From assembly GCA_024683775.1 (NCBI GenBank), contig GCA_024683775.1_4106.1: a stretch of 64,000 bases of DNA; one strand, given 5' to 3'. The DNA is from a phage. The position numbers and the translations under genes are program-made. Below are positions 7,848 to 61,036 of this stretch, in pieces; position 1 is the stretch's first letter, and every line of letters starts with the position of its first letter. The notes beneath the pieces are model-generated. The model did no database searches. It was not told the origin of the DNA and saw nothing but the letters and a program-made list of their open reading frames with translations.

Positions 7848-8243
7848 ATGAATAATACTATTGGTAGTACAATATCTAAACCACTCTCTTATTACCTTGA
7901 AAAATTCAGAAGTACAAATGGTAAAAAATTTAATGGTATATACCAATTCTCACATAAAGAATATATCACAGTTGATTGTTATTCAAATAAACTTATGTAC
8001 GTAGATGATACTGAATACTGTATGAAATTGTCATTGGATGTAGAATTAGATAAGTTAACATTTATTGAATATACATCCAAAAGAACATCATTTCTTGGGA
8101 AATGTAATCGAAAAGTATATAAAAATATTTCAATGTACTTAAATGAAGATTACCACTTCCAACAAACAACGATTGAAGATGTTCTATTCAGTACTGAAGA
8201 ATTGAAAGAACTGTATCACTGGTATAAGCAATTCACATCTTGA
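7848..8243 (+). CDS. acidic-FQxS motif paralog family protein
   Basis: Motif 'NEDYHFQQTTIED'. The stop TGA lies inside the next promoter's TTGACA. Confidence 0.65.
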   Translation: MNNTIGSTISKPLSYYLEKFRSTNGKKFNGIYQFSHKEYITVDCYSNKLMYVDDTEYCMKLSLDVELDKLTFIEYTSKRTSFLGKCNRKVYKNISMYLNEDYHFQQTTIEDVLFSTEELKELYHWYKQFTS

Positions 8244-8268
8244 CATTATCGTGGGTTTATCCTACAAT
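8240..8268 (+). promoter_or_regulatory. sigma70-type promoter
   Basis: TTGACA at 8240-8245, 17 bp spacer, TACAAT at 8263-8268. Confidence 0.55.
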
Positions 8269-8298
8269 GTAAGATAATGATACATAGAGGATAAATTT

Positions 8299-8709
8299 AT
8301 GAGTTTAGATTTACACAATGAACTAAAATATTATTTCGATTTGGATATATCACATTTGAACCAACACGTCAATTATATGACTAGTACTATGTGGTGGTCT
8401 GATGAGTTTGATGAACCAAAAATCCAACTTTGTGGTGATTTGTCTGTTTTGAGGTTGTATGCCCTTGATTCGGAAATGAATATCAAGATCACATACATCC
8501 CATACACAAACAAACTTATTGTAAACACCCTAAACCCAGTTACCGTATTGAAAATTTCTGATTTGGACACGATACAGTCAGATGAATCACTATTCCAACG
8601 TTCTTTGATTGATGATATGGGTGGTATTTTATATGAAGATATTGTACAATTGAAGAAGATGTATAGTGAATTGTTAGAAATTAAAAACACAGTAATTGTG
8701 GGGAGTTGA
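8299..8709 (+). CDS. acidic-FQxS motif paralog family protein
   Basis: Motif 'SDESLFQRSLIDD'. Confidence 0.65.
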   Translation: MSLDLHNELKYYFDLDISHLNQHVNYMTSTMWWSDEFDEPKIQLCGDLSVLRLYALDSEMNIKITYIPYTNKLIVNTLNPVTVLKISDLDTIQSDESLFQRSLIDDMGGILYEDIVQLKKMYSELLEIKNTVIVGS

Positions 8710-8710
8710 T

Positions 8711-9115
8711 ATGGTAAGTTTACTTGATATTGATAATACCAGTCTAGTACTGGTAAAAAAAGGTGTAATTCCCAATTCTACAAAAATTGATTATGCAGTT
8801 ATTGAAACAAATATTGGAAATATCTGGTATGACTCCGAAAGGGATATTGTGATTAGCTGCGTAGACAGTGACCGTGCTGAGTGTTGTAGGGTTGGTCATG
8901 ACGGGCAATTTATTTTCGAATTCCGTTACTGGAAAGATGCTAAATTCCATCATGAGCATGTTTCAATTACAGGTGTGTATTGCACCGAAGAATCGTTCTT
9001 CATGGATAGTACTGTTAATGATTTTGGTTCAGTTACATTTGAGTACTATAAAAAAGTATACAACGTATCCAGAGAAGTAATGCGAATCATCAGAAATGCT
9101 GAGGGTCAAGATTAA
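8711..9115 (+). CDS. acidic-FQxS motif paralog family protein
   Basis: Motif 'TEESFFMDSTVND'. I prefer the ATG at 8711 over the non-ATG start at 8696 in the ORF track. Confidence 0.6.
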   Translation: MVSLLDIDNTSLVLVKKGVIPNSTKIDYAVIETNIGNIWYDSERDIVISCVDSDRAECCRVGHDGQFIFEFRYWKDAKFHHEHVSITGVYCTEESFFMDSTVNDFGSVTFEYYKKVYNVSREVMRIIRNAEGQD

Positions 9116-9116
9116 C

Positions 9117-9491
9117 ATGACTACTATATATGACATTTTAGGTGACTTGAATAAAAATATAGATAATGATTTTGTTATTGTTCAAGATACTAGAAATTTA
9201 TTTCAACTACCAATAGGTTCACCAGATAGGTTAATTTTTAATAGATACGCAAAAACACTGACATACCTACACGATGGTATGGTTATATTGGTACTTGATA
9301 TTAAAGAAAATACAATACGATATGCATATGACTTCAAAGATTATTGGTCAAGAACCCATAGTATTGATATTGAGGAAGAGGAACTATTCCAATTGTCATT
9401 GATTGAGGAAAATGTAATAGGAATTACAGAAATTGATATTGTTAAAAAAGCATTAGACTATACAAATATAAAAATTAATGGTGAGCTATGA
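9117..9491 (+). CDS. acidic-FQxS motif paralog family protein
   Basis: Motif 'EEEELFQLSLIEE'. The ATG at 9117 avoids overlap with the upstream gene; 9096 is an alternative. Confidence 0.6.
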   Translation: MTTIYDILGDLNKNIDNDFVIVQDTRNLFQLPIGSPDRLIFNRYAKTLTYLHDGMVILVLDIKENTIRYAYDFKDYWSRTHSIDIEEEELFQLSLIEENVIGITEIDIVKKALDYTNIKINGEL

Positions 9492-9943
9492 TGGAAATTG
9501 ATGAAATAAAAAATCATTTTGAAATTGCATTGTCTTGTAAATTTGATGGCTCTTATGTTCCTGATCCAGAAGAGATAATTAGAATTTCCACATCGTTTTC
9601 GGAAGAGTACAATGTTCTTATTGAGAAAACATATGACAGTACGGAACTCGCATTTTACAATAAGAATTCACGAACAACAACATTTATATTATTATATAAC
9701 ACAACATCGGATTTAATAGAAATTATAACATGTAAAACAATCAAAGATGTACATTATGAGACTATATCAAATGTGAGTTATTGTTCAACTGAAGAAGGAT
9801 ACTTTCAGGAATCTCTTGTTAAAAATTTAACAGTTAGTTATTCTGATTTAAGCACTATAATCAATTGTGTTGAAAAGCTAAATGATTTCGTTCTATCTAT
9901 GTTTGATATCACAGAGCAAAACCCGAAGGTAATCAAATGCTAA
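9488..9943 (+). CDS. acidic-FQxS motif paralog family protein
   Basis: Motif 'TEEGYFQESLVKN'. ATGA overlap upstream. Confidence 0.65.
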   Translation: MMEIDEIKNHFEIALSCKFDGSYVPDPEEIIRISTSFSEEYNVLIEKTYDSTELAFYNKNSRTTTFILLYNTTSDLIEIITCKTIKDVHYETISNVSYCSTEEGYFQESLVKNLTVSYSDLSTIINCVEKLNDFVLSMFDITEQNPKVIKC

Positions 9944-10392
9944 ATCCAGGACAGTTTTTCCATTTACTTAGTATTACACCTATACCGGATTTAATCAGTG
10001 AAGCGAATCAATATCGTGATATAGGAATTGTATCTATGGAATACGATTCACCTGACTTTAAATGTTACGTAACATATGATTTGGTAGCCTATGAGTCAGA
10101 AACTGAGATAAAAAAACCATCATACATTTTTGTGTTCATATATAATGATTATAGTGGTGATCTACTCAATGATGTTCATATTGACACATTTGAAATATGT
10201 GATAATATTATAACAGATGATTCATCATGTACATTTGATTTATCAGAAAACAGTACTGAAGAGGCACTTTTTCAGTTGAGTACTGTTAGTGACACTGTAC
10301 TAACTCTTGATGACATTGAGAAATTTAAAGAACAGCTTGACGCAGTACGTGAGATGTTCTATAATCATTATCCAGAAATCGAGTTCAAATAA
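9937..10392 (+). CDS. acidic-FQxS motif paralog family protein
   Basis: Motif 'TEEALFQLSTVSD'. Confidence 0.65.
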   Translation: MLNPGQFFHLLSITPIPDLISEANQYRDIGIVSMEYDSPDFKCYVTYDLVAYESETEIKKPSYIFVFIYNDYSGDLLNDVHIDTFEICDNIITDDSSCTFDLSENSTEEALFQLSTVSDTVLTLDDIEKFKEQLDAVREMFYNHYPEIEFK

Positions 10393-10406
10393 CTAAAGGT
10401 ATCAAA

Positions 10407-10667: not shown

Positions 10668-10745
10668 GGAAATATATGGCAGAAAAACCAAAAGAACCAT
10701 TGGACCGTGATGATGATTTTTACGACGAACGATATGGGGAATCAG

Positions 10746-10997: not shown

Positions 10998-11049
10998 ATA
11001 AGATGCTATAATGTATTATAGTACCTTAACAATATAAAAAGGATTTTAT

Positions 11050-14387: not shown

Positions 14388-14558
14388 ATGAGTCTACGTG
14401 AATCATGGGAACAATTTAAAGAAGAGATTGGTTATCGTGGTGTCAAAATCGAACCAATCAATCGCACCGAAAGCATCAAAGCTAGTACTAATGGCACTAC
14501 CTATGATCGTTATGATGAAAAGTATGGTTTACATTCTAAACCAAAGGATACTGAGTAA
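14388..14558 (+). CDS. small hypothetical protein (56 aa; not in ORF track)
   Basis: GGGGA purine run upstream of the ATG. Fills a gap. Confidence 0.4.
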   Translation: MSLRESWEQFKEEIGYRGVKIEPINRTESIKASTNGTTYDRYDEKYGLHSKPKDTE

Positions 14559-14701
14559 TGGTGTATACTAATATTTTTACTGGTATTATGCGTAAGTTTG
14601 TTAATGGTATTGGATATGTATCCAATGACAACGGTAGTACATGGGTAAAAAATAATACGTCAGAATCTTTAGTGAAAAGTCTTCCGTATTATAAAGCTTG
14701 A
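14558..14701 (+). CDS. small hypothetical protein (47 aa; not in ORF track)
   Basis: TAATG overlap upstream. The TGA stop lies inside the next TTGACA. Confidence 0.35.
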   Translation: MVYTNIFTGIMRKFVNGIGYVSNDNGSTWVKNNTSESLVKSLPYYKA

Positions 14702-14726
14702 CACATGAAAATGGAGTATGTATAAT
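14698..14726 (+). promoter_or_regulatory. sigma70-type promoter
   Basis: TTGACA at 14698-14703, 17 bp spacer, TATAAT at 14721-14726. Confidence 0.6.
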
Positions 14727-21845: not shown

Positions 21846-22006
<161 letters not shown>

Positions 22007-22010
<4 letters not shown>

Positions 22011-22167
22011 CACATGAAGAATGGATGAATGACATTAATTTTAGATATTCGGGTATCGGTAAATGGCTAAAGTATCATTGGGAATTCATTTCAGAGCCAC
22101 ATCTGTATGATAAACTTATCAACGATCCAGCATATGAAATGTACTTAATTGAACTACTGGTACGAAT

Positions 22168-22171
<4 letters not shown>
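22007..22171 (+). CDS. 54-aa 'MTHEEW' family protein, tandem copy 2
   Basis: ATGA overlap upstream. Nearly identical to copy 1 over the first 19 codons. Confidence 0.5.
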
Positions 22172-22763
<592 letters not shown>

Positions 22764-22767
<4 letters not shown>

Positions 22768-22792
22768 CTAAATAGTTCAGTACTGATATAAT
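22764..22792 (+). promoter_or_regulatory. sigma70-type promoter, copy B of the repeated promoter
   Basis: TTGACT at 22764-22769, 17 bp spacer, TATAAT at 22787-22792. Confidence 0.6.
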
Positions 22793-22798
22793 GAATTC

Positions 22799-23140
22799 CA
22801 CAATCAGACGTATATGGTGTAAGTTACGTCGATGTAATCCAGAACAAGATCTCTGGTACTCTAGGAAGTGGTGAATGTTAACCTAGACGGGTTTGATAAT
22901 TGGACGATAGGCAATTATTACTTGACTAGCAGGTTTAAACTAGAGGTGACAGTCCTTTACCAAACTGGAAAACCGGATGGACTTTTATTTAAAAGGGTAA
23001 GGCGTGGAAATATGTTTACAGTAGTTGCTTTTAGTAGCCTGTACGCCCCACGTAAAGGTAGCCGAAAGGCAAGTTAAAACGGGTGGTTATAAAGCTGAAT
23101 TAACAGCGGCGTTTAAAAGCGTCACCATCCATTTTTTTTA
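22799..23140 (+). ncRNA. candidate structured non-coding RNA (~340 nt), promoter-driven and ending at a T8 run
   Basis: No convincing ORF. It has its own promoter. GNRA hairpin GCC-GAAA-GGC. Nested stem CCAC...GTGG. Terminal stem GGGTGGT...ACCATCC followed by TTTTTTTT. Confidence 0.45.
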
Positions 23141-23155
23141 ATTAAAGTTGGTGAT

Positions 23156-23533
<378 letters not shown>

Positions 23534-23544
23534 GATTAAGTACT

Positions 23545-24109
<565 letters not shown>

Positions 24110-24123
24110 ATCAGTACTTTATT

Positions 24124-24258
<135 letters not shown>

Positions 24259-24262
24259 AATC

Positions 24263-24352
24263 GGTCCCGTTGCCTAGCGTCCGAAGGCAGCCGACTCATA
24301 ATCGGTCACAGTTAATGACACACCACTGGTTAGAATCCAGTCGGGACCACCA
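24263..24352 (+). tRNA. tRNA with CAT anticodon (Met/Ile2 type) carrying an ~18 nt variable region and a TTA T-loop
   Basis: Acceptor GGTCCCG/CGGGACC plus A plus CCA. D-arm GCCT...AGGC. Anticodon arm GCCGA-CTCATAA-TCGGT. T-arm ACTGG-TTAGAAT-CCAGT. Confidence 0.6.
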
Positions 24353-24356
24353 ATTA

Positions 24357-24429
24357 GACTCTGTAGTTCAGTTGGTAGAACGCTTCACTCATAATGAAGA
24401 AGTCGCTGGTTCAATCCCAGTACTGACCA
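24357..24429 (+). tRNA. tRNA-like (CAT anticodon) with a non-complementary acceptor stem; possible pseudogene
   Basis: Canonical D-arm GTTC-AGTTGGTA-GAAC, anticodon arm CTTCA-CTCATAA-TGAAG and T-arm GCTGG-TTCAATC-CCAGT. The 5' GACTCTG cannot pair with the 3' ACTGACC. Confidence 0.35.
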
Positions 24430-24438
24430 CAAAAAAAA

Positions 24439-26136
<1,698 letters not shown>

Positions 26137-26183
26137 AATATTCTCCTGAATTTTCTAAAAGTTATAATAATATTTAGTTACAA

Positions 26184-26190
26184 TATTTAT
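26184..26190 (-). promoter_or_regulatory. possible T4-type late promoter core (ATAAATA on the minus strand)
   Basis: The minus strand reads TCATAAATATTG about 48 nt upstream of the GTG start. Confidence 0.25.
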
Positions 26191-26206
26191 GATATAGATT
26201 AAAAAG

Positions 26207-26236
26207 TTGAAATGTGTTCAAAAAATGTGGTATAAT
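26207..26236 (+). promoter_or_regulatory. sigma70-type promoter with an extended -10
   Basis: TTGAAA at 26207-26212 and TGgTATAAT at 26228-26236. Confidence 0.5.
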
Positions 26237-26262
26237 ACCTCTGTTGTTCACGGAAAGATTAA

Positions 26263-26484
<222 letters not shown>

Positions 26485-34213: not shown

Positions 34214-35371
34214 TTATGCGTTATAACCAACAATGACTACAGTACAGCCAAATGGTTCAACAACTTTTAATACAACATTATCATCTGCATCGAGTTCAAC
34301 TTCACTTAGAACAACATGATTGTCTTCAGCATAGACTTGAACTTGTGGGAGGATTTTACCATGTTCACTGGCAGGAATGGACAGTGTGTACATAGAATCA
34401 CCATCATCTACCCAATCACTATCGGTATACGTGTTGTGATATGGAGTGGTGTGTAAGGTTTTACCAATAATACTCAATGAGATTGGAGCATCATCAGTTT
34501 GGTACACAGTAATATTACCGCTAGGATCTACAATGAGGTCTACTCCAATTTGGAATAAATCACCACTGTATGCTTGTAGAGCAAGATACTCACCACGCTC
34601 ATGCACAGTAGCTGGTACAGTTGCCATGTACATACCATCGGACGTGTACTCAAACTGAGATAGAAGTACTGAAGTAACGAAGTCAATATCTTCGCCGCTT
34701 TCTAGTATATCAAATTCAATAGTTTTGGTATTATATATGTCAGAAGTGAGTATGATGGTTCCTTTACCGGATTGAGTAATTGGATCAACTGGAATACTAA
34801 AAACATCATCAATTATTTCAGTTGTGAAGTACTCGGTTCCGTCAGGAAGTATAACGGTAATACGCATTCCAGTTGTATCAATGGCTGAACCTGCGTTGAA
34901 TAGGCGACCACCTACCAAATCATCACCTACGAACGTTGGGAACATAAGGATGTTGTCTATATCTCTATCTATAATCCCGCATTCAGGGGTGTACATATTA
35001 TATAGTGTTTGTGAACTACCTAGAATTGTTTTGTGCAAAAGAAACTTATAAACAAACCCAGTAGGATCTGATTCAAGTTTAGCATCTGAGTATCCTCTTA
35101 CGAAAAAAGAGTTCTTTCTTATTTCACTTAGGATTTGGTCATTAGTTTTGTTGTAGTTTAATTGATATCCTTGTATATCCTTTGTTGTAATTTGTACTTT
35201 ACGATAAATTACATTACTTACAGGATCAAGTAAATCATATAATCTATGGCTTCTCTGACGATAGATTCGAACATTTTTGAGTTTAGTCCCATCGTTGAGA
35301 ATTGCACCATCGACTACATATCCACATTCACCGAACTTATATTGTCCAGCAGCAGCAATCGATCTTGACAT
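34214..35371 (-). CDS. hypothetical late or structural protein (fibre or decoration-like; unassigned)
   Basis: 385 aa on the minus strand. GGAGGG RBS and ATG start. The composition looks beta-rich. Possible late-promoter core upstream. Confidence 0.6.
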   Translation of the reverse strand: MSRSIAAAGQYKFGECGYVVDGAILNDGTKLKNVRIYRQRSHRLYDLLDPVSNVIYRKVQITTKDIQGYQLNYNKTNDQILSEIRKNSFFVRGYSDAKLESDPTGFVYKFLLHKTILGSSQTLYNMYTPECGIIDRDIDNILMFPTFVGDDLVGGRLFNAGSAIDTTGMRITVILPDGTEYFTTEIIDDVFSIPVDPITQSGKGTIILTSDIYNTKTIEFDILESGEDIDFVTSVLLSQFEYTSDGMYMATVPATVHERGEYLALQAYSGDLFQIGVDLIVDPSGNITVYQTDDAPISLSIIGKTLHTTPYHNTYTDSDWVDDGDSMYTLSIPASEHGKILPQVQVYAEDNHVVLSEVELDADDNVVLKVVEPFGCTVVIVGYNA

Positions 35372-37709: not shown

Positions 37710-38131
37710 TGTTCACACTTAGCAATGCAAAGTATCTATTTCTTATTGCTATTATTGGTTGGGTTATGGCTCCAGTGCTTAATGCACTGGGGTTTCCAGA
37801 CGGACATAAACTTGTAAATGTTTCAGGTGTAATCCAGGGCATTTCATGGTATTCATTGATTATATTTTCTATATGTATTCATACATTTGCACGTGATTAC
37901 CGCCGTCTGCTTTTTGTTAAAGTATTCGGTACTAAGAGATATAGTTTTGTGTTTACATTTATTTTAATACCATGTATTATCTATGCTTTTGTATTTGATT
38001 ACTATACTTATCTGTGGGTGTGTGGTTCTATGTTTGTTATGTTGGAATATACAAGAACTGTTCAAAACTCATATGCTGATGAGTATTATGATCTTGAAGT
38101 TAAACGAAAATTAACGGAGCTAAACAAATGA
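37709..38131 (+). CDS. multi-pass membrane protein
   Basis: About four hydrophobic helices. TAATG overlap upstream. Confidence 0.55.
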   Translation: MFTLSNAKYLFLIAIIGWVMAPVLNALGFPDGHKLVNVSGVIQGISWYSLIIFSICIHTFARDYRRLLFVKVFGTKRYSFVFTFILIPCIIYAFVFDYYTYLWVCGSMFVMLEYTRTVQNSYADEYYDLEVKRKLTELNK

Positions 38132-38553
38132 GGGGATACAATAAGATTTGTATTTTTGTATTTTTAGTTTGTGCAATCAATACATTTGGATATTACTGTA
38201 CTGAAAACAACATTTCATATGGTTTAAATCCTTTGTGGTTTACAATTGCCAATGTAGCACAAATTGGTATTGCTGTTATGTCTGCACTTATGTTCTGTCC
38301 AATTGTCACTATGGATACTGAACATGAAAGGCTTGGATTTATCCGTGATACTGGAGACGAACCTTACAGTAGATTGATTGTGTTGTATCCATTTATTGTT
38401 ATTTTAGGTACTAACATCCAACTTGGGTCTTTATCTAATAGTGTTACTTCAGCAGCCATTACAGTCTTTGCATTCACATTTTTTATGGTACACAAATCAG
38501 TACTCAAATGGCACATCACCAAAATGGCAGAGAAAGGTACAGAAAACAGTTGA
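38128..38553 (+). CDS. multi-pass membrane protein
   Basis: About four hydrophobic helices. The stop TGA lies inside the next TTGACG. Confidence 0.55.
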   Translation: MRGYNKICIFVFLVCAINTFGYYCTENNISYGLNPLWFTIANVAQIGIAVMSALMFCPIVTMDTEHERLGFIRDTGDEPYSRLIVLYPFIVILGTNIQLGSLSNSVTSAAITVFAFTFFMVHKSVLKWHITKMAEKGTENS

Positions 38554-38578
38554 CGTGAGTTATTGAGTCATATATAAT
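38550..38578 (+). promoter_or_regulatory. sigma70-type promoter
   Basis: TTGACG at 38550-38555, 17 bp spacer, TATAAT at 38573-38578. Confidence 0.55.
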
Positions 38579-38870: not shown

Positions 38871-38899
38871 TTGACTTAACCAATAACATGGAGTACAAT
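38871..38899 (+). promoter_or_regulatory. sigma70-type promoter
   Basis: TTGACT at 38871-38876, 17 bp spacer, TACAAT at 38894-38899. Confidence 0.55.
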
Positions 38900-40145: not shown

Positions 40146-41111
40146 GTGAAAAAGCTTGATTTAAATGCAATTTCTGAAGAAGTACTGGATGAGTGTTTTG
40201 CTAGTGAAGAAGTCAACGTATTAGAGGCTCTTGATTCCGTCGAAGAAGAAGAACATGACGGTCACAAGTTTGAGAAACCAAAAACAGGTATCAGCTTAAC
40301 TCGCCCTAAAGGGATAACGAATGAAATGCTCATCCAAGCAGTGCGTGATGGTATTGACGTTGAAAAGAACATTGACCTTTTGGTTCGCTACAACTATCCA
40401 ATGGTAGTAAGTGTTGCACGTAAGTGTACATGTTTTATCCCATTTGAAGATAAGATTTCTTATGGTGTTGAAGGTTTAATGCGAGCAATTCATACGTTCG
40501 ACACTACCAAAAATGTTAAGTTCATTACATATGCAACAACAACTGTGTACATGACAATCTATAACGAAAGTGCAGATGCTAATTATCTAGTGCATTTCCC
40601 ACGTTATATGAGTGTTAATAACATTTATGTGAAACGTTGTGTAGAAGAGTATCAAAGGAAACATGGTAAATACCCAACTCCTGAGATGGTGTCAAAAGAG
40701 ACTGGTATTGAGATTCAACACGTTAAGAATTGTCTAACTTACAGTAACACTTATGTAGCATTGAATATGAAAATGAGTAATGATTCAGAAAGTACATTAT
40801 CTGACATTGTTACTTCAGTTGAACCTGATTACAACTTAGGCGTAGAAACTGTCAGTACCCCACTGGTACAAAGTATTGCAGAAATGATGAGTAACCTATC
40901 TGCCAAAGACCGTGAATTGATTGAACGTGTACATGGTATTGGTTCTTATTCTGAACCCGAAACGCTACGAGAAATCATTGAGAGTGGTTTTGAAGATGAG
41001 AAGGGTAAGGTCATGACTGCTCGTTCTTCATTGCACCGTAAGTACTCTGAAGCAATGGAACGACTGCGTAAGATGGTTAAGACAAAAGGTTATGAGTTCG
41101 AAGATTTTTAA
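40146..41111 (+). CDS. sigma-70 family RNA polymerase sigma factor
   Basis: GTG start after a GGAGAAG RBS. Region 2-like 'LVRYNYPMVVSVARK...GVEGLMRAIHTFD...KFITYATTTVYMTIYNE'. Region 4-like 'LSAKDRELIERVHGI...ETLREI...ARSSLHRKYSEAMERLRK'. Confidence 0.75.
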   Translation: MKKLDLNAISEEVLDECFASEEVNVLEALDSVEEEEHDGHKFEKPKTGISLTRPKGITNEMLIQAVRDGIDVEKNIDLLVRYNYPMVVSVARKCTCFIPFEDKISYGVEGLMRAIHTFDTTKNVKFITYATTTVYMTIYNESADANYLVHFPRYMSVNNIYVKRCVEEYQRKHGKYPTPEMVSKETGIEIQHVKNCLTYSNTYVALNMKMSNDSESTLSDIVTSVEPDYNLGVETVSTPLVQSIAEMMSNLSAKDRELIERVHGIGSYSEPETLREIIESGFEDEKGKVMTARSSLHRKYSEAMERLRKMVKTKGYEFEDF

Positions 41112-41119
41112 GATTAAAG

Positions 41120-41145
41120 GGTTGACTTCGGTCAGCCTTTTTTTA
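41120..41145 (+). terminator. terminator hairpin of the repeated TTGACTTCGGTCA cassette family (copy 1)
   Basis: GGTTGAC-TTCG-GTCAGCC hairpin followed by TTTTTTT. Confidence 0.7.
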
Positions 41146-41180
41146 TGGGACAAATTTATTAATGGTGATACAATGATCTA

Positions 41181-41660
41181 TGTACAATCACAATGACAGT
41201 ACTGGTACTGACAATCTTCCCCTACTTCACTTGAAAATGTAAAGGATAGATGAGCTTTTCATTGTAGCGAACAGCAAAAGAAACCCGTTAGATGTGGGCA
41301 TAGTTTGAACCCCTCACGGCAATGCGGCTGTATAAAGAACCACGTTAGGATAGCTGGTGGTTCCTCGATAGACATATAAGGATAACACCTTACGAATTAT
41401 CTAAGGGAGAGTTATCGAATTTTGTACAGGAAAGTTGCGTCCAAAATTTGAGTACTCACATTAAGTATTTGATTGCATAGATACTTAATGAAGATACACT
41501 ATGTTTAAAAGTGTAGACCGTCATATGAAACTGAAGTAGAGAGAAACAGGATGACCCGCTTTCGCACTCGTTATGAGTAATCTTCAATGCAATAGCTCTG
41601 ATACCATCAGCGTCAAATTTCCCTCCGTGCGGGGGGAAGAAAAATCCCTTCCTCAAATCC
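41181..41660 (+). ncRNA. candidate large structured non-coding RNA (~480 nt)
   Basis: Extended -10 TGaTACAAT at 41166-41174. No plausible ORF. Hairpins GAACCAC...GTGGTTC, CATTAAGTAT...ATACTTAATG and ACACT...AGTGT. Terminal hairpin TTCCCTCC-GTGC-GGGGGGAA. Confidence 0.4.
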
Positions 41661-41678
41661 CGTCAATATTAAAAGTCC

Positions 41679-41707
41679 TTGACAGTTATGATTCATTCGC
41701 GTAGAAT
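41679..41707 (+). promoter_or_regulatory. sigma70-type promoter
   Basis: TTGACA at 41679-41684, 17 bp spacer, TAGAAT at 41702-41707. Confidence 0.55.
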
Positions 41708-41771
41708 ACGTAGTATTAGAAGCGAACAGACATCTCGAAGAGATGGATGATTAACCATTGAGGAATATCTA

Positions 41772-41981
41772 ATGAATTCAGTAATCTTTTTAATTATTGC
41801 TCTTTCACCACAATCTGGTGTACAAATCACCCCAATGAATTCAATGAATCAATGCATTGCAGTACGTGACAGTACGTATGAACAAGTAAACAGCGTTTCA
41901 CTTAGAACAGTTGGTGAAGAATTAATGTGGTGTTACAATAGTAATACTAAAGAAAAACTAATTGTTGGACAAACAGAATGA
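41772..41981 (+). CDS. small secreted or membrane-anchored protein
   Basis: Hydrophobic N-terminus 'SVIFLIIALSPQSG'. Confidence 0.5.
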   Translation: MNSVIFLIIALSPQSGVQITPMNSMNQCIAVRDSTYEQVNSVSLRTVGEELMWCYNSNTKEKLIVGQTE

Positions 41982-43507: not shown

Positions 43508-43535
43508 TTGACATAAGATATCAGTACTGTATAAT
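43508..43535 (+). promoter_or_regulatory. sigma70-type promoter followed by a long leader hairpin
   Basis: TTGACA at 43508-43513 and TATAAT at 43530-43535. The leader has GCAGTGA...TCACTGC and then a T-run. Confidence 0.55.
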
Positions 43536-43628
43536 GTTTATATCAAAGGGAATGCAGTGAAAGGAAAGACAGCATAATCGTACTCGTCACTGCGTTTCCA
43601 CCCTTTTAAATTAAATGAGGAATTAACT

Positions 43629-48709: not shown

Positions 48710-49056
48710 AAGTAATTTTGTTTTTTGTTTGTATGATTATATGTGGTATGTCTTATGCAGAACCATTACCTGGACTAGTCTGTACTGAAGGTGATATTAA
48801 ACACATTTACCAAGGTGATAGCGATGACCATACTATCGTTTATATCGATGGTGAAGTGTATAATTTTGTTAAAGAACATACTGTAGGTGACATTAGTTTT
48901 ACGCAGTACTCGAATGATACTGATCCCAATATGCTTGCATTTCTTCAAGTTGATGTATATGAAGAAAGTAATGGCGAACAGTATGTTAAACTTGTGATGA
49001 TGCGTAAGGCAGCAAAACAGGCAACATTCGGTGGCTTGTGTAAATATGAGGACTAA
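48706..49056 (+). CDS. secreted Cys-bracketed small protein family member
   Basis: Signal peptide. Contains 'LVCTEGD', 'GEVYNF' and 'GLCKYED'. Confidence 0.55.
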   Translation: MKVILFFVCMIICGMSYAEPLPGLVCTEGDIKHIYQGDSDDHTIVYIDGEVYNFVKEHTVGDISFTQYSNDTDPNMLAFLQVDVYEESNGEQYVKLVMMRKAAKQATFGGLCKYED

Positions 49057-49060: not shown

Positions 49061-49252
49061 ATGTTGATTTATCAATGTGATAACATTCGTGTTATGCAGC
49101 ATCCCTACTTACAAATCTTTGATGTGCAGCAGTATATGGAAGGTGATGATCCAAGAACCTATGGTCGTAAGTATGATTACTTCACTGTAAAGCAGTGTCG
49201 TGACATCAAAGAAGTACGACAATTAGTTCAAGAACTTCAAAATAAAGGTTGA
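49061..49252 (+). CDS. hypothetical protein
   Basis: ATG at 49061 after a GAGGA RBS. The stop TGA lies inside the cassette TTGACT. Confidence 0.5.
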   Translation: MLIYQCDNIRVMQHPYLQIFDVQQYMEGDDPRTYGRKYDYFTVKQCRDIKEVRQLVQELQNKG

Positions 49253-49278
49253 CTTCGGTCAACCTTTTTTGTTATAAT
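49244..49278 (+). promoter_or_regulatory. terminator/promoter cassette copy 2
   Basis: AAAGGTTGAC-TTCG-GTCAACCTTT hairpin plus T-run. TTGACT at 49249-49254, 18 bp spacer, TATAAT at 49273-49278. Conserved leader ATTTCATCAACTACTGG. Confidence 0.7.
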
Positions 49279-52838: not shown

Positions 52839-52872
52839 GGGGTTGACTTCAGTCAGCCCTTTGTCGTATAAT
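52839..52872 (+). promoter_or_regulatory. terminator/promoter cassette copy 3
   Basis: GGGGTTGAC-TTCA-GTCAGCCC hairpin. TTGACT at 52843-52848, 18 bp spacer, TATAAT at 52867-52872. Confidence 0.65.
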
Positions 52873-53617: not shown

Positions 53618-53649
53618 AGGGTTGACTTCGGTCAACCTTTATATATAAT
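53618..53649 (+). promoter_or_regulatory. terminator/promoter cassette copy 4
   Basis: AGGGTTGAC-TTCG-GTCAACCTTT hairpin. TTGACT at 53622-53627, 16 bp spacer, TATAAT at 53644-53649. Confidence 0.65.
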
Positions 53650-53662
53650 GGAAGAAATAAAC

Positions 53663-54190
53663 ATGGAACGTTGGAAATTAATTCCTGATTATGACTATTC
53701 AATTTCTGATCATGGAAGAGTAAGAAACGAACAAACTGGATATATAAGTTGTGGATTTAAAAATAAAGATGGGTATGTGAAGGTCGATTTGTATCGCAAT
53801 TCTGTGAAAAATAGAAAGGCGATTCATCGACTAGTAGCTGAAGCATTTTTACCACCACCCACACAGAAACAGTTACAGTGGGCAAGTAGAACAAAGAAAA
53901 AAGTTGTTCACATAAACCATAAAGATTGTAATAGAAGTAACAATCACTATTTGAATTTGGAATGGAACACAGCATCTGAAAACGTACTATATTCTTATTC
54001 ACATGGTAACGCAACAACTAATCGTGGTGCTGCTGTGTTGACATGGGAAATTGTAAGAGAAATAAGAAAAGATTATAATGATAATTATAATGATGTGATA
54101 GAATATGCACGAGAAAATTGTAATAAATACCGTGTATGTAAAAAAACAATACGTCGTATTTTATACAATCAAACATGGATAGAGGATTAA
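53663..54190 (+). CDS. HNH-type homing endonuclease (NUMOD4-like plus HNH_3-like)
   Basis: 'MERWKLIPDYDYSISDHGRVRN', 'IHRLVAEAFLPPP' and 'INHKDCNRSNNHYLNLEW'. The track start at 53648 overlaps the -10 element. Confidence 0.7.
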   Translation: MERWKLIPDYDYSISDHGRVRNEQTGYISCGFKNKDGYVKVDLYRNSVKNRKAIHRLVAEAFLPPPTQKQLQWASRTKKKVVHINHKDCNRSNNHYLNLEWNTASENVLYSYSHGNATTNRGAAVLTWEIVREIRKDYNDNYNDVIEYARENCNKYRVCKKTIRRILYNQTWIED

Positions 54191-55694: not shown

Positions 55695-55730
55695 AAAAGG
55701 TTGACTTCGGTCAACCTTTTTTTGTAAATA
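55695..55730 (+). promoter_or_regulatory. terminator/promoter cassette copy 5 (degenerate -10)
   Basis: AAAAGGTTGAC-TTCG-GTCAACCTTTT hairpin. TTGACT at 55701-55706 and TAAATA at 55725-55730. Confidence 0.55.
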
Positions 55731-56379: not shown

Positions 56380-56412
56380 GGGTTGACTTCGGTCGGCCCT
56401 TTTTGCTATAAT
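56380..56412 (+). promoter_or_regulatory. terminator/promoter cassette copy 6
   Basis: GGGTTGAC-TTCG-GTCGGCCC hairpin plus T-run. TTGACT at 56383-56388, 18 bp spacer, TATAAT at 56407-56412. Leader CATTTCATCAACTACTGGAGG. Confidence 0.7.
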
Positions 56413-57487: not shown

Positions 57488-57496
57488 GGATTGATA

Positions 57497-57838: not shown

Positions 57839-57839
57839 G

Positions 57840-58184: not shown

Positions 58185-58193
58185 GGGATTGCT

Positions 58194-58451: not shown

Positions 58452-58831
58452 TGCGTCAAATGCACAAAGTAACCGAGCTAAACAAGCGTCTGATTAAACA
58501 ATCAATGTTTGAGGATAAAGAGTCTTACTATAACTTCAAACGTGCTGTAGAGGCTGCTATCCACATTCAGAAGCTTAAAGATAGTGGATGTATTATTCTC
58601 GAAAATGGTTCTGACGTTGTTACTGATGACTTCAGTGTAGCGTTTGATGTTTCACCTGATGGTTCGCTATCAATGCCACGCTTAGGGACTGGTGACATGA
58701 CTGTGTGGGTAGGTTTCACTATGGGGAATGTACCAGGCACGGTGTATGTAGATGATGCTGAGTTGAAAGAAAGCTTCAAAAACTTATCGCATCTTGAACC
58801 ACAATACGCACATGAAATGAATTTATTTTGA
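58451..58831 (+). CDS. hypothetical protein
   Basis: 126 aa ORF. TAATG overlap upstream. Confidence 0.55.
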   Translation: MRQMHKVTELNKRLIKQSMFEDKESYYNFKRAVEAAIHIQKLKDSGCIILENGSDVVTDDFSVAFDVSPDGSLSMPRLGTGDMTVWVGFTMGNVPGTVYVDDAELKESFKNLSHLEPQYAHEMNLF

Positions 58832-58832
58832 G

Positions 58833-58860
58833 TTGACAAACTCATTCAGTACTGTATAAT
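58833..58860 (+). promoter_or_regulatory. sigma70-type promoter followed by a leader hairpin
   Basis: TTGACA at 58833-58838 and TATAAT at 58855-58860. Leader hairpin GGGGATGA-ACTTC-TCATCCCC at 58870-58890. Confidence 0.6.
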
Positions 58861-58907
58861 GTTTATCAAGGGGATGAACTTCTCATCCCCACAATCGAGG
58901 AATTGTC

Positions 58908-59462
58908 ATGATTACTTTTAAGAAAACTGCTAACCACATCCATGAGATCTACATTAACGGTCACAAAGCTGGCCTTCTTCGTTTACTCGCCCATCATCCG
59001 AATATTACCGTATCTGATAATGAACCTAAAGATTGGCGTGTATTTTTCTTTGGAAAGTACAGTGATTTTCAAGTATCAAACCTGAAGAACATTCGTTCAG
59101 TATGCACGTTAACTGAAATTAAAGAAAAGTTAACCAAAGCATTGAAAACTAATCCAGATAGTGTTCTTCCACCTGATAACTTTGTAGAGAAAGGATATGC
59201 CTTAGCTCATTTCAAAGATGGTACTATTCAATCTATCAGTACTGAATATGAATATCAATGGACTGAGTACTTCACTTATGGATCGCGTAATACATTGATG
59301 GCTTCACGTAGTAAATTGGAAGAAGTACTGACTCGTATGAATGAACGCGAGCGTCAATTTTATGACAAACCAGAAATGTGGAGTTCAACTTACATTGACC
59401 GTATTGACTATGTTATTATGACTCCAATCTTTGACACTGCTTACTATGATTCTTTGAAATAA
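58908..59462 (+). CDS. hypothetical protein
   Basis: 184 aa ORF with a GAGGAA RBS. Confidence 0.6.
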   Translation: MITFKKTANHIHEIYINGHKAGLLRLLAHHPNITVSDNEPKDWRVFFFGKYSDFQVSNLKNIRSVCTLTEIKEKLTKALKTNPDSVLPPDNFVEKGYALAHFKDGTIQSISTEYEYQWTEYFTYGSRNTLMASRSKLEEVLTRMNERERQFYDKPEMWSSTYIDRIDYVIMTPIFDTAYYDSLK

Positions 59463-59473
59463 GGATAACTTAT

Positions 59474-59650
59474 ATGAAACTACGTACTCGTAATCGACTG
59501 ATGGATGCACTGTACCATGAACAGCTTTCACTGAATGAAGTGAAGCGTCAGTTAATGTACACATATCTGTTACCCGCTCGCATTGCAAAACAACGTGCTA
59601 AAGAATTGCTGAAAGAAGCAATCGAGTACTGGGAATCTGATTCGTACTAA
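59474..59650 (+). CDS. 58-aa hypothetical protein (not in ORF track)
   Basis: AAGGA RBS upstream. Begins MKLRTRNRLMDALYHEQLSLNEVKRQL. Confidence 0.4.
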   Translation: MKLRTRNRLMDALYHEQLSLNEVKRQLMYTYLLPARIAKQRAKELLKEAIEYWESDSY

Positions 59651-59678
59651 TTGTCACGTTAATTAAGTGAGGCGATAA

Positions 59679-59930
59679 ATGAAAATTTTATTAGTTCTAA
59701 TACTACTAATTGTTTTACCATTTACGTTAGTATCCCCTGAACTTGCATGGAATGTGTTTGTGTACTTACTATGTACTATTGTAGTAAATGGTATCTTGTT
59801 CTTAGTTCTATTCATAAATGGAATAGGACACGGTGGAGGATGGACCAGTACTGCTGATATTGTACATAAAACCACTATGTCTTTATTTGTAGTGTGGAAT
59901 TTATTCTGGACTTGGTTTGTGTTCTTCTAA
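59679..59930 (+). CDS. small membrane protein (3 TM)
   Basis: Hydrophobic helices. GAGG RBS. Confidence 0.55.
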   Translation: MKILLVLILLIVLPFTLVSPELAWNVFVYLLCTIVVNGILFLVLFINGIGHGGGWTSTADIVHKTTMSLFVVWNLFWTWFVFF

Positions 59931-59939
59931 TTAAAAAAT

Positions 59940-60311
59940 ATGAATATAGATTTGAAAGGTGCAACCCGAACTGTCATACTCATTGGGGAATATGCTATCA
60001 AGATTCCAACCTTTAAAAGTTGGAAGCTATTCTTAACAGGGATGATAGCTAACCTCAATGAACGTTCTTGGATGCAGTACTCCAAGCGTAGTGATAGTGG
60101 TATCTGCCCTACGTTGTGGTCATCATGTACTGGACTAGTAACTGTACAGAAACGTTGTAAGCCAGTACAACATAGGGGTTTATTTTGGGTGGAGTTGTGT
60201 GCTTTAGCATTGGATTCAGAGTTGAGTACTGACTTCTTCTATTCAGATGCGAAGCCAGAAAACTTTGGGTATCTGGGTGGTAAGTTAGTTAAACTTGATT
60301 ATGGAGATTAA
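59940..60311 (+). CDS. mini protein-kinase-like protein (tentative)
   Basis: 'GEYAIKIP' is VAIK-like. 'NERSW' could supply the alpha-C Glu. 'SDAKPENFG' is a D-x-K-P-x-N catalytic loop. 'VKLDYGD' is DFG-like and sits at the very C-terminus. Confidence 0.45.
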   Translation: MNIDLKGATRTVILIGEYAIKIPTFKSWKLFLTGMIANLNERSWMQYSKRSDSGICPTLWSSCTGLVTVQKRCKPVQHRGLFWVELCALALDSELSTDFFYSDAKPENFGYLGGKLVKLDYGD

Positions 60312-60312
60312 T

Positions 60313-60600
60313 ATGTACGCACTGTATAATAAAGAAAAGAAACAATTTGCTAAGGTTGAAAAATCGATTGATACATTTGGCATGTTTAAGTACTGTATTG
60401 TGACGGACCCATATGCTAACTTGTATTACGTTCTTGATGACGTATCAGTACTGCAACGATTGCTTGAACGTTCCAAAAGCCAATGCCAAGGTATCCATGA
60501 TGGTTCAACTTATGAAACACCTGAGTGTTCCTATGGCTATCTGGATGGGTATGAGATTGTGAAGTTGGGTGCATTGTTGAATAAATGGATTAAACAATGA
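60313..60600 (+). CDS. hypothetical protein
   Basis: ATG at 60313 directly after the upstream stop. Confidence 0.5.
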   Translation: MYALYNKEKKQFAKVEKSIDTFGMFKYCIVTDPYANLYYVLDDVSVLQRLLERSKSQCQGIHDGSTYETPECSYGYLDGYEIVKLGALLNKWIKQ

Positions 60601-61010
60601 AGAAGTGTATCACGTGTAATATTGAAAAAGACATTAGTGAATTTGGTATAAGAAGTGATACTGGGAAACATAGAAATACATGCAAAGGTTGTAGTAATAT
60701 TACCAGTAAGAGAACCAGAAATAAAAAAACTGATGTAAAAACACTTGAAGAAATCAAAAGAAAAAATAAAGATTTCATGACCAGAGTTAAATCATTTTAT
60801 GGTTGTAGTGTTTGTATGATGAAGTATCCAGAATGTTTAGACTTTCACCATCTTGACCCTAATACCAAAGAACATACACCAAGTTCTATGTTCAGTAAAA
60901 GTCGAGAATCTATCAAAGATGAAATTCGAAAGTGTATGATTCTTTGTTCTAATCACCATCGCATGGTACATTCTGGTAGACTATGTTTGATTGAAAGAAA
61001 AAAGGGTTGA
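60597..61010 (+). CDS. HNH endonuclease
   Basis: 'CSVCMMKYPECLDFHHLDPNTKEH' and 'CSNHHRMVHSG'. The stop TGA lies inside the cassette TTGACT. Confidence 0.8.
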   Translation: MKKCITCNIEKDISEFGIRSDTGKHRNTCKGCSNITSKRTRNKKTDVKTLEEIKRKNKDFMTRVKSFYGCSVCMMKYPECLDFHHLDPNTKEHTPSSMFSKSRESIKDEIRKCMILCSNHHRMVHSGRLCLIERKKG

Positions 61011-61036
61011 CTTCGGTCAGCCCTTTTTGCTATAAT
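61004..61036 (+). promoter_or_regulatory. terminator/promoter cassette copy 7
   Basis: GGGTTGAC-TTCG-GTCAGCCC hairpin plus T-run. TTGACT at 61007-61012, 18 bp spacer, TATAAT at 61031-61036. Confidence 0.7.

Follow-up and report, generated by a model that had tools for sequence, protein, structure and literature searches.

Gene layout of the window

The window (the whole stretch of phage DNA analyzed, 64,000 nt) is the early small-gene region of an Asteriusvirus, an Escherichia coli jumbo phage of the 121Q/PBECO4 type, and shows 99.3% identity to phage WPEC5 and 88% to 121Q. Jumbo phages of this genus measure about 350–385 kb. Heuristic selection of open reading frames (ORFs) by the authors gave a set of 148 genes on the + strand. 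These are tightly packed: 94 of the 147 gaps between them are of 20 nt or less, 35 measure 46–120 nt, and ATGA start/stop overlaps occur at 22 places in the window. The phage encodes a sigma factor of its own (ORF 40146..41111, Sigma70_r2/r3 domains).

Six stop codons located in −35 hexamers

Six ORFs of the + strand end on the TGA contained in a TTGAC(A/T/G) hexamer, as the original prediction had stated; on checking every coordinate all six stops were found in frame, occupying bases 2–4 of the hexamers at 8240, 14698, 22764, 38550, 49249, and 61007, with a TATAAT-like box 17–18 nt on. In our gene set, which includes 51 TGA stops, these six are the only ones in a TTGAC context. The same CDS ends are annotated in WPEC5 and 121Q, PHROG families are matched over the whole length, or almost so, by five of the six ORFs, the remaining one being an HNH endonuclease, and four of the six show an excess of third-codon-position substitutions relative to their counterparts in related phages. 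The gaps at the junctions measure 42–59 nt, or 100 nt where a non-coding RNA comes next. The junctions represent the tightest spacing that keeps the promoter outside coding sequence, the next ATG being located about 55 nt on.

A significant stem-loop is missing at four of the six junctions (fold z-scores of −1.6 at 8240, −1.3 at 14698, +0.8 at 22764, and +0.7 at 38550), which are therefore regarded as plain promoters and not as composite modules. The ORF at 7848..8243 (131 aa, function unknown) matches phrog_33313 over its full length and differs from 121Q by 20/15/47 substitutions at the three codon positions; its stop (8241–8243) lies in the −35 hexamer of a sigma-70-type promoter (TTGACA, 17 nt, TACAAT; 8240..8268, + strand), and this junction is conserved in 121Q. 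The 47-aa ORF at 14558..14701 (codon-position substitutions 8/9/26) is closed by the TGA of a perfect 12/12 promoter (TTGACA, 17 nt, TATAAT; 14698..14726, + strand), in which a 7-bp stem-loop (GGAGTAT..ATACTCC) overlaps the −10 box, an arrangement also seen at 38871; the stop/−35 overlap is kept in phage JNE01 at 72% protein identity. The 121-aa ORFan at 22402..22767 lies between two near-identical promoter copies, at 22343 and 22764, the downstream one carrying its stop. JNE01 retains this overlap, its protein being 59.5% identical, and no third-position bias was seen in the substitutions of this ORF relative to related phages. The downstream copy, TTGACTaaatagttCAGTACTGaTATAAT (TTGACT, 17 nt, TATAAT; 22764..22792, + strand), belongs to a group termed here class B and is predicted to drive a non-coding stretch and no protein gene. 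The hydrophobic 141-aa product of ORF 38128..38553 ends at the TGA of a TTGACG hexamer (17 nt, TATAAT; 38550..38578, + strand); the overlap is kept in phages 121Q, UE-S1, and SD-15, where the hexamer reads TTGACA, and is not kept in JNE01.

Only the junctions at 49249 and 61007 show a significant hairpin. The 63-aa ORF at 49061..49252 (or from a GTG start at 49031) has its UGA in the 5′ arm of the terminator hairpin of a composite module, referred to as class A (49244..49278, + strand; AAAGGTTGAC-TTCG-GTCAACCTTT followed by a T-run, with TATAAT 18 nt after TTGACT; −14.1 kcal/mol, z −5.2). All seven Asteriusviruses compared share this arrangement, among them JNE01, where the protein is 75% identical, and the GenBank record of UE-S1 has a terminator annotated over the end of this CDS. 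The second case is a truncated HNH endonuclease ORF of 137 aa (60597..61010, + strand), closed by the −35 TGA of a pre-existing class A module (61001..61036, + strand; GGGTTGAC-TTCG-GTCAGCCC, TTTTT, and TATAAT 18 nt after the TTGACT at 61007; −19.8 kcal/mol, z −5.3).

Promoter-like sites and the hairpin family

On the + strand 39 sites match the sigma-70 consensus at 11/12 or better and on the − strand none does, compared with about 3.2 in simulated sequence; for perfect 12/12 matches the corresponding figures are 11, none, and 0.16. A ribosome-binding site and an ATG follow about 25–35 nt on. The proposal that the TTGAC hexamers belong to promoter-like modules is supported at the sequence level, as their number is far above chance and all of them point with the genes.

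In the class A family (eight copies in the window, all on the + strand) the −35 box is itself the 5′ arm of a UUCG terminator hairpin, and the T-run of the terminator fills the promoter spacer. Folding energies range from −14 to −20 kcal/mol with z-scores of −3.3 to −5.3, values that come from direct folding for six of the eight listed copies; a module at 589 folds with z −5.0. In the alignment of the stem 97% of cells pair, and one stem pair occurs as GC 17, AU 8, and GU 5 times. Opposite the two T's of TTGAC only A or G is found, which means that pairing is preserved solely in the + strand RNA. A G+C-rich stem, a short loop, and a T-run on the transcribed strand give these elements the features of intrinsic terminators. 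At 52843 and 53622 the T-run is short (3 T). Depositors annotated terminators for this region in the UE-S1 and G17 records, and those of UE-S1 sit on class A hairpins. On this evidence the modules probably act both as promoters and as terminators.

Two copies, at 41119..41145 (+ strand, z −3.3; after the phage sigma-factor gene and without a usable −10 box) and 55699..55725 (+ strand; after a 497-aa gene with its stop TAA at offset −15), appear to be terminators only. Other class A modules, all on the + strand, are found at 52839..52872 (upstream TAA at offset −13), where a replacement seen in 121Q, UE-S1, SD-15, and JNE01 has its left breakpoint; at 53619..53649, whose hairpin is immediately followed by an inserted HNH_3/NUMOD4 endonuclease gene (53648..54190); at 56380..56412 (stop TAA at offset −13); and at 61587..61619, which is the joint of indels of 0.7–3.9 kb in six of six relatives. 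In most class A copies from the window, its relatives, and IMG/VR the preceding gene stops within a tract rich in A, at offsets of −11 to −16, usually on a TAA some 12 nt before the hexamer. Among 45 copies of the hairpin module in IMG/VR about two thirds have a stop (TAA or TGA) at −11 to −13, and the TGA of the −35 box is used in one. The hairpin GGGTTGAC-UUCG-GUCAGCCC is common to RaK2-like genera and a few other large phages in IMG/VR.

Frequency of the stop/−35 overlap

Since TTGAC contains TGA, a gene frame that enters a −35 box in that phase, which is one in three, must end there. The phase of the overlap was examined on the 39 + strand sites that combine TTGACN with a −10 box scoring at least 5/6. 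Of these, 13 fall between genes, 20 fall within a gene but in another phase, and 6 share the phase of the gene. In-phase sites therefore account for 6 of the 26 strong sites reached by an open gene frame (23%), compared with 33% expected by chance (P for six or more = 0.91). With the count limited to genes that end no more than 60 nt past the −35 box, the in-phase share is 6 of 12, above one third but not significantly so (P = 0.18). A comparison of overlap statistics with chance, of the kind that the original prediction called for, hence yields no excess over all strong sites and a non-significant one in the restricted set, and the non-randomness that it implied finds no confirmation. Promoters often lie against or within the final part of a gene, and one reading frame in three is closed by TTGAC; the six cases would be that third. 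In all likelihood the overlap is about as frequent as tight packing and chance frame predict, and is not a recurrent designed joint.

Cassette turnover between related phages

Comparison with relatives points to the promoter modules as sites of gene gain and loss. The class B promoter at 43508..43556 (+ strand) is a hybrid of two promoters that flank a cassette with a 97-aa ORF (121Q gp173) in related phages; a 28-nt repeat (43529–43556) is the deletion joint of this cassette. Another class B copy, at 22343..22370 (+ strand), is absent from JNE01 and is a chimera of the −35/spacer part of the 22764 promoter and a −10/start region like that of 43508. In 121Q the −35/spacer part of the 22764 promoter is duplicated around a 47-nt insert, and the first copy of the 61587 module is broken in the hairpin loop at 61590. 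Indels relative to relatives are flanked by repeats at 43529–43556, 61585–61602, and 22763–22786, and insertions adjoin modules at 53640 and 60990. Breakpoints were derived from BLAST, whose alignments extend into any repeated module; with this property, 11 of 69 breakpoint clusters fall in modules, which make up 3% of the sequence (P = 6e-6), whereas measured against their 17% share of non-coding sequence the enrichment is only about two-fold (P = 0.02). These patterns suggest that cassettes of ORFans and homing-endonuclease genes are gained and lost at promoter modules, with recombination as the probable cause of the indels.

The HNH ORF at 60597..61010 illustrates such an event. It matches phrog_2255 (E = 2.5e-32) over positions 53–173 of 211 and is thus truncated; a Pfam search of this ORF gave no match. 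It is absent from 121Q, UE-S1, SD-15, and JNE01, which makes it an insertion specific to the window, while WPEC5 carries a decayed remnant, internally deleted and frameshifted. Among the six junctions, coincidence with a cassette boundary in relatives was found at 61007 (the HNH insertion) and 22764 (promoter duplication and loss of a unit), whereas those at 8240, 14698, 38550, and 49249 show no variation among the relatives that carry the gene. JNE01 retains at least three of the six overlaps, with protein identities of 60–75%, which marks these as old and stable and not as recent joins.

Interpretation and alternative explanations

The preferred explanation, to which we assign a probability of roughly 0.8, is that dense early genes and chance phase account for the six overlaps and that the repeated promoter/terminator families serve as recombination and insertion sites. 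Host sigma-70 RNA polymerase would transcribe the early region from about 30–40 strong consensus promoters, all on the gene strand, which lie against or within the end of the gene before them so that a third of frames would close on the −35 TGA. Each hairpin-promoter module would end the upstream transcript and start a new one, and the repeats may act as homologous-recombination sites and insertion targets, at which ORFan and homing-endonuclease cassettes would be gained and lost as described for the PeSLs (promoter-early stem-loops) of T4-like phages. The idea that cassettes are joined at or just before the promoter module is partly right, as cassettes do differ between relatives at modules, but the reason lies in the repeated promoter families: the recombination joints that could be resolved lie within promoter or hairpin (past the spacer, past the −10 box, or in the loop), and none lies at the −35/stop boundary. 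Likewise, the notion of a module inserted behind any open frame and ending it finds a counterpart in the HNH ORF, an insertion ahead of a module already present, whose TGA closes the frame, but the phase share fits chance. Junctions in related phages give a similarly divided picture, with variation at 61007 and 22764 and conservation of three to five of the six overlaps across the genus.

It has to be considered whether the stop-in-promoter junction is a selected, reusable joint, in which a promoter-led cassette brings a frame-closing TGA and the six cases mark joins. The modules do close all three frames within about 25–60 nt: the −35 box contributes a TGA, the −10 box a TAA, and a third stop precedes the ribosome-binding site. 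One ORF (22402..22767) lies between two copies of one promoter and is stopped by the second, the inserted HNH ORF is closed by a −35 TGA, and the +1 stop state arose separately at several hairpin junctions, in the 49249 family, at WPEC5 locus 73587, at JNE01 locus 15262, and at 61007 in the window. AT-rich non-coding DNA closes all frames within tens of nucleotides anyway, however, and the −11 to −13 offsets typical of the IMG/VR copies fall in all three frames, so that the module supplies no fixed stop, the +1 position being used only once. As the phase test already disfavors this reading, the overlaps conserved with their gene do not mark variable joints, and the joints that were resolved lie within promoter or hairpin, it appears very improbable. 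Still less probable is that TTGAC is not used as a −35 box, being merely a terminator stem in the hairpin family and elsewhere read by a phage sigma factor or not at all. The hairpins at 41122 and 55701 (two of eight) lack a usable −10 box, which means that the hairpin exists without a promoter, and a sigma-70-family factor is encoded in the window itself; against this, six of the eight hairpins have a TATAAT-like box at 16–18 nt, most of the 45 IMG/VR copies (about 35 on reading of the output) have a −10 box of at least 5/6, consensus matches far outnumber the expectation and all lie on one strand, a ribosome-binding site and ATG follow at about 25–35 nt, and in related phages TTGAC/TATAAT motifs lie at mapped transcript starts (PMC7318152).

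Ribosomes shield roughly 12–15 nt beyond the A site, and a terminator loses efficiency when a stop codon lies very near it. The overlaps at 49249 and 61007 might on this basis be functional, a ribosome stopping at the UGA blocking the hairpin so that translation of the upstream ORF sets read-through into the next cassette. The UGA does occupy stem positions of a stable hairpin, and the arrangement at 49249 is the one kept in every Asteriusvirus compared. Such conservation would also result from separate selection on the gene end and on the hairpin/−35 box, the usual stop spacing in the family is 11–13 nt upstream, and the 61007 case is a recent accident of the HNH insertion, already decayed in WPEC5, all of which makes this possibility unlikely. 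If true, it would mean a built-in translation-dependent anti-terminator inside a promoter/terminator cassette, with a small upstream ORF tuning read-through.

Comparison with known systems

The overlaps resemble the ATGA and TAATG overlaps of compact operons in that a gene's stop lies within the functional signal that follows, as a recurrent by-product of compaction. In those cases the stop overlaps a start codon of the same mRNA, and the translation of the two genes can be coupled, whereas at the six junctions it overlaps a promoter box at the DNA level, with no necessary tie to translation.

Among related jumbo phages, the RaK2-like CBB and PA5oct share with the window TTGACA/TATAAT-type promoters among short hypothetical genes, a phage sigma factor, and an early phase dependent on host RNA polymerase (PMC5259590; PMC7318152). 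RpoD-like promoters of CBB cluster in the early small-ORF region (PMC5259590), and PA5oct depends on host RNA polymerase and has TTGAC/TATAATA motifs at transcript starts derived from RNA-seq (PMC7318152). In the passages considered from both accounts promoters and terminators are listed apart, and the composite hairpin-promoter, the repeat families, and the link to indels, which are described here, are not mentioned (PMC5259590; PMC7318152).

The closest parallel is provided by the promoter-early stem-loops (PeSLs) of T4-like phages (Arbiol et al., 2010, PMC2839356; Comeau et al., 2014, PMC4122927). The modules described here occur in an Asteriusvirus jumbo phage and not in Straboviridae, their main hairpin is one fixed sequence with the −35 box itself as stem, and several promoters of the window, including four of the six at the junctions, have no significant stem-loop. 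Promoter and terminator activity as well as mini-circles have been shown for PeSLs (PMC2839356; PMC4122927), whereas for the window modules promoter and terminator activity is predicted from the sequence. PeSLs and window modules alike are intergenic cassettes that recur and carry a consensus sigma-70 early promoter oriented with the genes, an A/T-rich stretch upstream that contains the stop of the preceding gene, a stem-loop lying between the −35 and −10 boxes or over them and able to end upstream transcripts (in the window, as predicted), and a 3′ end formed by a ribosome-binding site and ATG (PMC2839356; PMC4122927). Both are concentrated among ORFans in a variable region and bound indels between close relatives, and a joint in the hairpin loop, as in 121Q at 61590, has likewise been reported for RB49 (PMC2839356; PMC4122927). 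The actual feature of this region is a set of repeated, putative promoter/terminator cassettes akin to the PeSLs already known in T4-like phages.

Phage and Genomic Region

The window (64 kb, 34.6% G+C) is 99.3% identical to the Escherichia phage WPEC5 and ~88% identical to phage 121Q, and on these identities its source is assigned to Asteriusvirus, a group of E. coli jumbo phages of ~350–385 kb. Its genes are short, of unknown function and nearly all located on the + strand. It also contains a tRNA cluster and a gene for a phage sigma-70-family factor (40146..41111); seven tRNAs are the only Rfam matches over the whole window at gathering score. In related jumbo phages such a region is regarded, according to one account, as an early, host-takeover region rich in RpoD-like promoters (CBB, PMC5259590).

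A 2.8-kb segment (23545-26311) that does not occur in WPEC5 and is largely missing from 121Q contains three tRNA genes together with 24439..26136 (565 aa), the one long ORF on the − strand in this area. This ORF has matches to phrog_30606 and to tail-fibre/hydrolase-like profiles, and the annotation of phage JNE01 includes a similar gene. Three tandem 165-nt ORFs at 21846-22332 (54 aa each, ~82% mutual identity) are kept in 121Q, WPEC5 and JNE01. The ~80-nt stretch at 5529-5611, which adjoins a TGGACA-17-TATAAT site at 5553, is single in the window and tandemly duplicated in WPEC5.

Stop Codons Within −35 Hexamers

Six ORFs (7848..8243, 14558..14701, 22402..22767, 38128..38553, 49061..49252, and 60597..61010) are closed in frame by a TGA lying within the −35 hexamer of the following promoter, all at the coordinates of the original prediction. 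The TGA corresponds to bases 2–4 of TTGACA (hexamers starting at 8240 and 14698), TTGACT (22764, 49249, and 61007) or TTGACG (38550), and a −10 box follows the hexamer after 17 or 18 nt (TATAAT in five cases, TACAAT at 8240). The depositors of WPEC5 and 121Q annotated identical CDS ends. PHROG families of unknown function are matched by five of the ORFs (end to end in four cases) and an HNH endonuclease profile by the remaining one, whereas Pfam matched none of the six. Four show the third-codon-position excess of coding sequence; 22402..22767 has no such excess, yet it is open over 121 codons in a 76%-identical relative. In a heuristic set of 148 + strand genes, a TTGAC context was found for 6/51 TGA stops, exclusively those of the six ORFs. 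A seventh, mechanical case (35246..35368, 40 aa) was left uncounted, as it overlaps the start of a − strand gene.

In this phage the hexamers probably act as promoters. The + strand has 39 sites that agree with TTGACA-N16-18-TATAAT at 11/12 positions or better, the − strand has none, and first-order Markov simulations yield 3.2; for perfect 12/12 matches the corresponding values are 11, 0 and 0.16. Such consensus promoters are concentrated in the part of the genome covered by the window, and at most sites a Shine-Dalgarno sequence and an ATG occur ~25–35 nt downstream of the −10 box. For the related jumbo phage PA5oct, a published analysis describes TTGAC and TATAATA motifs around transcript starts derived from RNA-seq, as well as dependence on the host RNA polymerase (PMC7318152).

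The original prediction took the recurrent overlap for a special joint by which a promoter-led cassette supplies the stop of any open frame placed before it. Reading-frame statistics do not bear this out. A TTGAC core combined with a −10 box of at least 5/6 occurs at 39 sites on the + strand: 13 are intergenic, 20 are within genes that do not read the TGA in phase, and six are in phase, these being the six ORFs described here. The out-of-phase set includes many strong promoters lying 50–150 nt short of the preceding gene's end, and even 12/12 promoters (16558, 20967, and 42859) are embedded in this manner. The in-phase share is thus 6/26 (23%), below the 33% expected from random phase (P(≥6) = 0.91). 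It rises to 6/12 in the subset with the gene end at most 60 nt past the −35 box (P = 0.18); homologous junctions in relatives are non-independent for these statistics. The overlap is a by-product of dense packing and of the TGA hidden in TTGAC, since promoters often run into the preceding gene and TTGAC closes one of three frames; it requires no special mechanism. The case is a caution: where short signals overlap repeatedly, the pattern should first be compared with what chance reading frame would give.

The position of upstream stops was also compared among copies of the hairpin-bearing promoter unit (module). Counted from the first T of TTGACT, these stops lie most often at −12 to −16, within an A-rich tract, in the window and six relatives. 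An exact-match scan of IMG/VR for this module (45 copies, 29 loci) placed the stop at −11 to −13 in about two thirds of the copies and within TTGAC (+1) in 1/45, the 121Q orthologue of 49249. A fixed TAA carried by this module was considered as the stop supplier and rejected: the three commonest offsets (−11, −12, and −13) span all three frames, so the gene merely ends at the edge of the A-tract.

A recent or lineage-specific origin of the overlaps was likewise rejected. 121Q keeps those at 8240, 14698, 22764, 38550 (local identity 82%), and 49249; those at 38550 and 49249 are retained in UE-S1 and Salmonella phage SD-15. Three (14698, 22764, and 49249) persist in JNE01, the most divergent relative compared, with proteins 72, 60, and 75% identical; in this phage the 38128 homologue has a different end and 7848..8243 is missing. 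The conserved overlaps are old, stable gene ends rather than recent joins. At 49249 and 61007 a ribosome stopping in a terminator stem could possibly suppress termination, although nothing here requires it.

Packing is tight throughout. Intergenic gaps fall into two groups, ≤20 nt (94/147) and 46–120 nt (35/147), and those at the six junctions measure 42–59 nt, roughly the minimum room for a −35 box, spacer, −10 box, short leader and ribosome-binding site. Only at 22764 is the gap wider (100 nt), as the promoter there is followed by a non-coding RNA region. The window has 22 ATGA start/stop overlaps, and a large share of its TGA stops is embedded in the next signal: 22 of the 51 overlap the next start as ATGA and six lie in TTGAC, and an A precedes 29.

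Putative Promoter and Terminator Families

Class A, a repeated promoter/terminator family with a UUCG hairpin, has eight copies, all on the + strand (41122, 49249, 52843, 53622, 55701, 56383, 61007, and 61590). Its form is (A)nGGG-TTGAC-TTCG-GTCAGCCC-TTTTT-GC-TATAAT, followed by cATTTCATCAACT..GAGGA. The −35 box is the 5′ arm of the UUCG-loop hairpin and a T-run occupies the promoter spacer, a structure resembling an intrinsic terminator. Folding energies of the hairpins range from −14 to −20 kcal/mol (z −3.3 to −5.3 relative to shuffled sequences), and 97% of stem cells are paired over 31 distinct copies taken from seven phages. One stem pair varies (GC 17, AU 8, GU 5) and the partners of both T's of TTGAC are A or G only; this preserves pairing in the + strand RNA and not in its complement, which indicates that selection acts on the sense transcript. 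Two copies, one following the sigma gene (41122) and the other a 497-aa gene (55701), have no usable −10 box and would be terminators only. The depositors of UE-S1 annotated class A hairpins as terminators, one of which overlaps the end of the CDS orthologous to 49061..49252. A cassette of this type would be a very compact natural terminator-plus-promoter part (~45 nt).

Class B, a second repeated family, is represented at 22343, 22764, 43508, 47470, and 58833 (TTGACW-N8-CAGTACTG-TATAAT). The promoters at 14698 and 38871 have a stem-loop over the −10 box. At 589-645, a long hairpin (AGAGTGCGTTT..AAACGCACTCT, then TTTTTT; −21 kcal/mol, z −5.0) contains a 12/12 promoter (TTGACA, 17 nt, TATAAT), with the −10 box enclosed by the stem and a T-run at the end of the stem; as the 5′ arm precedes the expected start, the terminator could form only in transcripts that read through from upstream. 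Among the six junctions, hairpin modules occur only at 49249 and 61007. The other four are plain promoters, and no significant stem-loop was detected at 8240, 14698, 22764 or 38550.

Gene Turnover at Promoter Modules

The window was aligned to WPEC5 and 121Q over its full length and to UE-S1, SD-15, JNE01, and CMSTMSU from ~37–39 kb on. Of 69 clusters of indel or replacement breakpoints, 11 fall in modules, which make up 3% of the sequence (P = 6e-6); when set against the 17% of non-coding sequence that modules occupy, the excess is ~2-fold (P = 0.02), and the coincidence is partly built in by the method because BLAST extends into any repeated module.

At 43508, relatives have a 97-aa ORF (121Q gp173) between two class B promoters and the window has a single hybrid promoter with its joint in a 28-nt repeat (43529-43556). 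At 61590, relatives carry 0.7–3.9 kb of additional genes between two class A copies, the first of which is broken in the hairpin loop in 121Q (between GGGTTGACTTCGGT and TACAC). At 53622, an HNH_3/NUMOD4 homing-endonuclease gene (53648..54190), missing from all six relatives, has been inserted into the T-run just past the class A hairpin; the 497-aa structural gene downstream of it has also had its first ~50 nt replaced, as expected from co-conversion. The 22343 promoter is a chimera of the −35/spacer part of 22764 and a 43508-like −10 and start region. It is entirely missing from JNE01, in which the 22764 promoter is joined straight to another downstream unit; in 121Q the −35/spacer part of 22764 is duplicated around a 47-nt insert.

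The ORF 60597..61010 matches the HNH endonuclease profile phrog_2255 (E = 2.5e-32) and is truncated, as the match spans only positions 53–173 of 211. It is missing from 121Q, UE-S1, SD-15, and JNE01. Where it is missing the preceding gene ends ...ATTGAATAA, followed by AGAAAAGGGTTGACT, and in the window the HNH gene sits between the stop of that gene and the class A module. Its last eight codons (..TTGATTGAAAGAAAAAAGGGT TGA) resemble a copy of the ancestral end of that gene and its spacer in which the TAA has been lost, so that the frame continues to the TGA of the −35 hexamer. In WPEC5, a 318-nt internal deletion and one more A in the A-run put this TGA out of phase.

Breakpoints and repeat-flanked indels thus support that part of the original prediction according to which cassettes are joined at promoter modules, and they place the region among PeSL-like systems (PeSL, promoter-early stem-loop cassette); the stop/−35 overlap is not supported as the joint. 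The cassettes mark sites of gain and loss of ORFans and homing-endonuclease genes and provide a handle on turnover in the large pool of unknown early genes of jumbo phages.

Candidate Non-coding RNAs

Downstream of the sigma-factor gene and its terminator is a non-coding element of ~460 nt (41228-41690, + strand) that may represent a family of large structured RNAs in RaK2-like jumbo phages. Asteriusviruses share it at 96% identity (flanking genes, ~85%); identity is ~70% in CBB, GAP32, Serratia BF, Erwinia and Yersinia jumbo phages and Salmonella Munch. The element occurs at ~4 places per genome, nearly always without annotation. RNAalifold (six sequences) predicted 102 pairs, 40 with compensatory double changes, along with a CCCCUGCGGGGGG hairpin at the end and long single-stranded motifs that do not vary. 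It had no Rfam 15 match at E ≤ 1, a search of 41100-41800 giving only a chance PhrS fragment; its nhmmer profile found no match in the PA5oct region with ncRNA001/ncRNA002, and no tandem repeats were found in 41100-41800.

The 22764 promoter precedes two conserved non-coding units (22796-22990 and 22990-23145, + strand) and no protein gene. Unit 1 (~190 nt) has counterparts in T4-like Bragavirus phages of Proteus, Morganella, and Shigella (85–91% identity), in a T5-like Proteus phage (86%) and in RaK2/K64-1 (80%), with a partial match in Aeromonas phage 65-like phages. It occupies an unannotated gap adjoining tRNA genes in the four tRNA-cluster loci compared (PM2, Proteus phage 1, SdyM_006, and Aeromonas phage 65), and in all but the last of these it fills the gap between two tRNA genes; its neighbors in RaK2 are hypothetical CDS on both sides. 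RNAalifold predicted 41 pairs, 10 of them compensatory. JNE01 has unit 2 (~150 nt) alone, and both units are missing from some Asteriusviruses. Rfam had no match at E ≤ 1 over 22700-23600, and the units show no similarity to T4 rnaC or rnaD.

Comparison with the PeSLs of T4-like Phages

PeSLs are repeated sigma-70 early promoters of T4-like phages with an A/T-rich upstream stretch containing the stop of the preceding gene, a stem-loop terminator mostly between or over both boxes, and a ribosome-binding site and ATG next; they are located in variable, ORFan-filled regions, and recombination between copies produces indels (PMC2839356, PMC4122927). A literature search for PeSL found no jumbo-phage account, the descriptions so far being from T4-like phages. 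The cassettes analyzed here match PeSLs in anatomy and behavior but belong to jumbo phages; in addition, their hairpin is nearly fixed in sequence, the −35 box itself is the stem, and several promoters have no stem-loop. PeSLs themselves are defined functionally by activity assays and mini-circles. Judged by likeness in sequence, PeSL-like promoter/terminator cassettes are also present in the 350-kb Asteriusvirus/RaK2-like jumbo phages.
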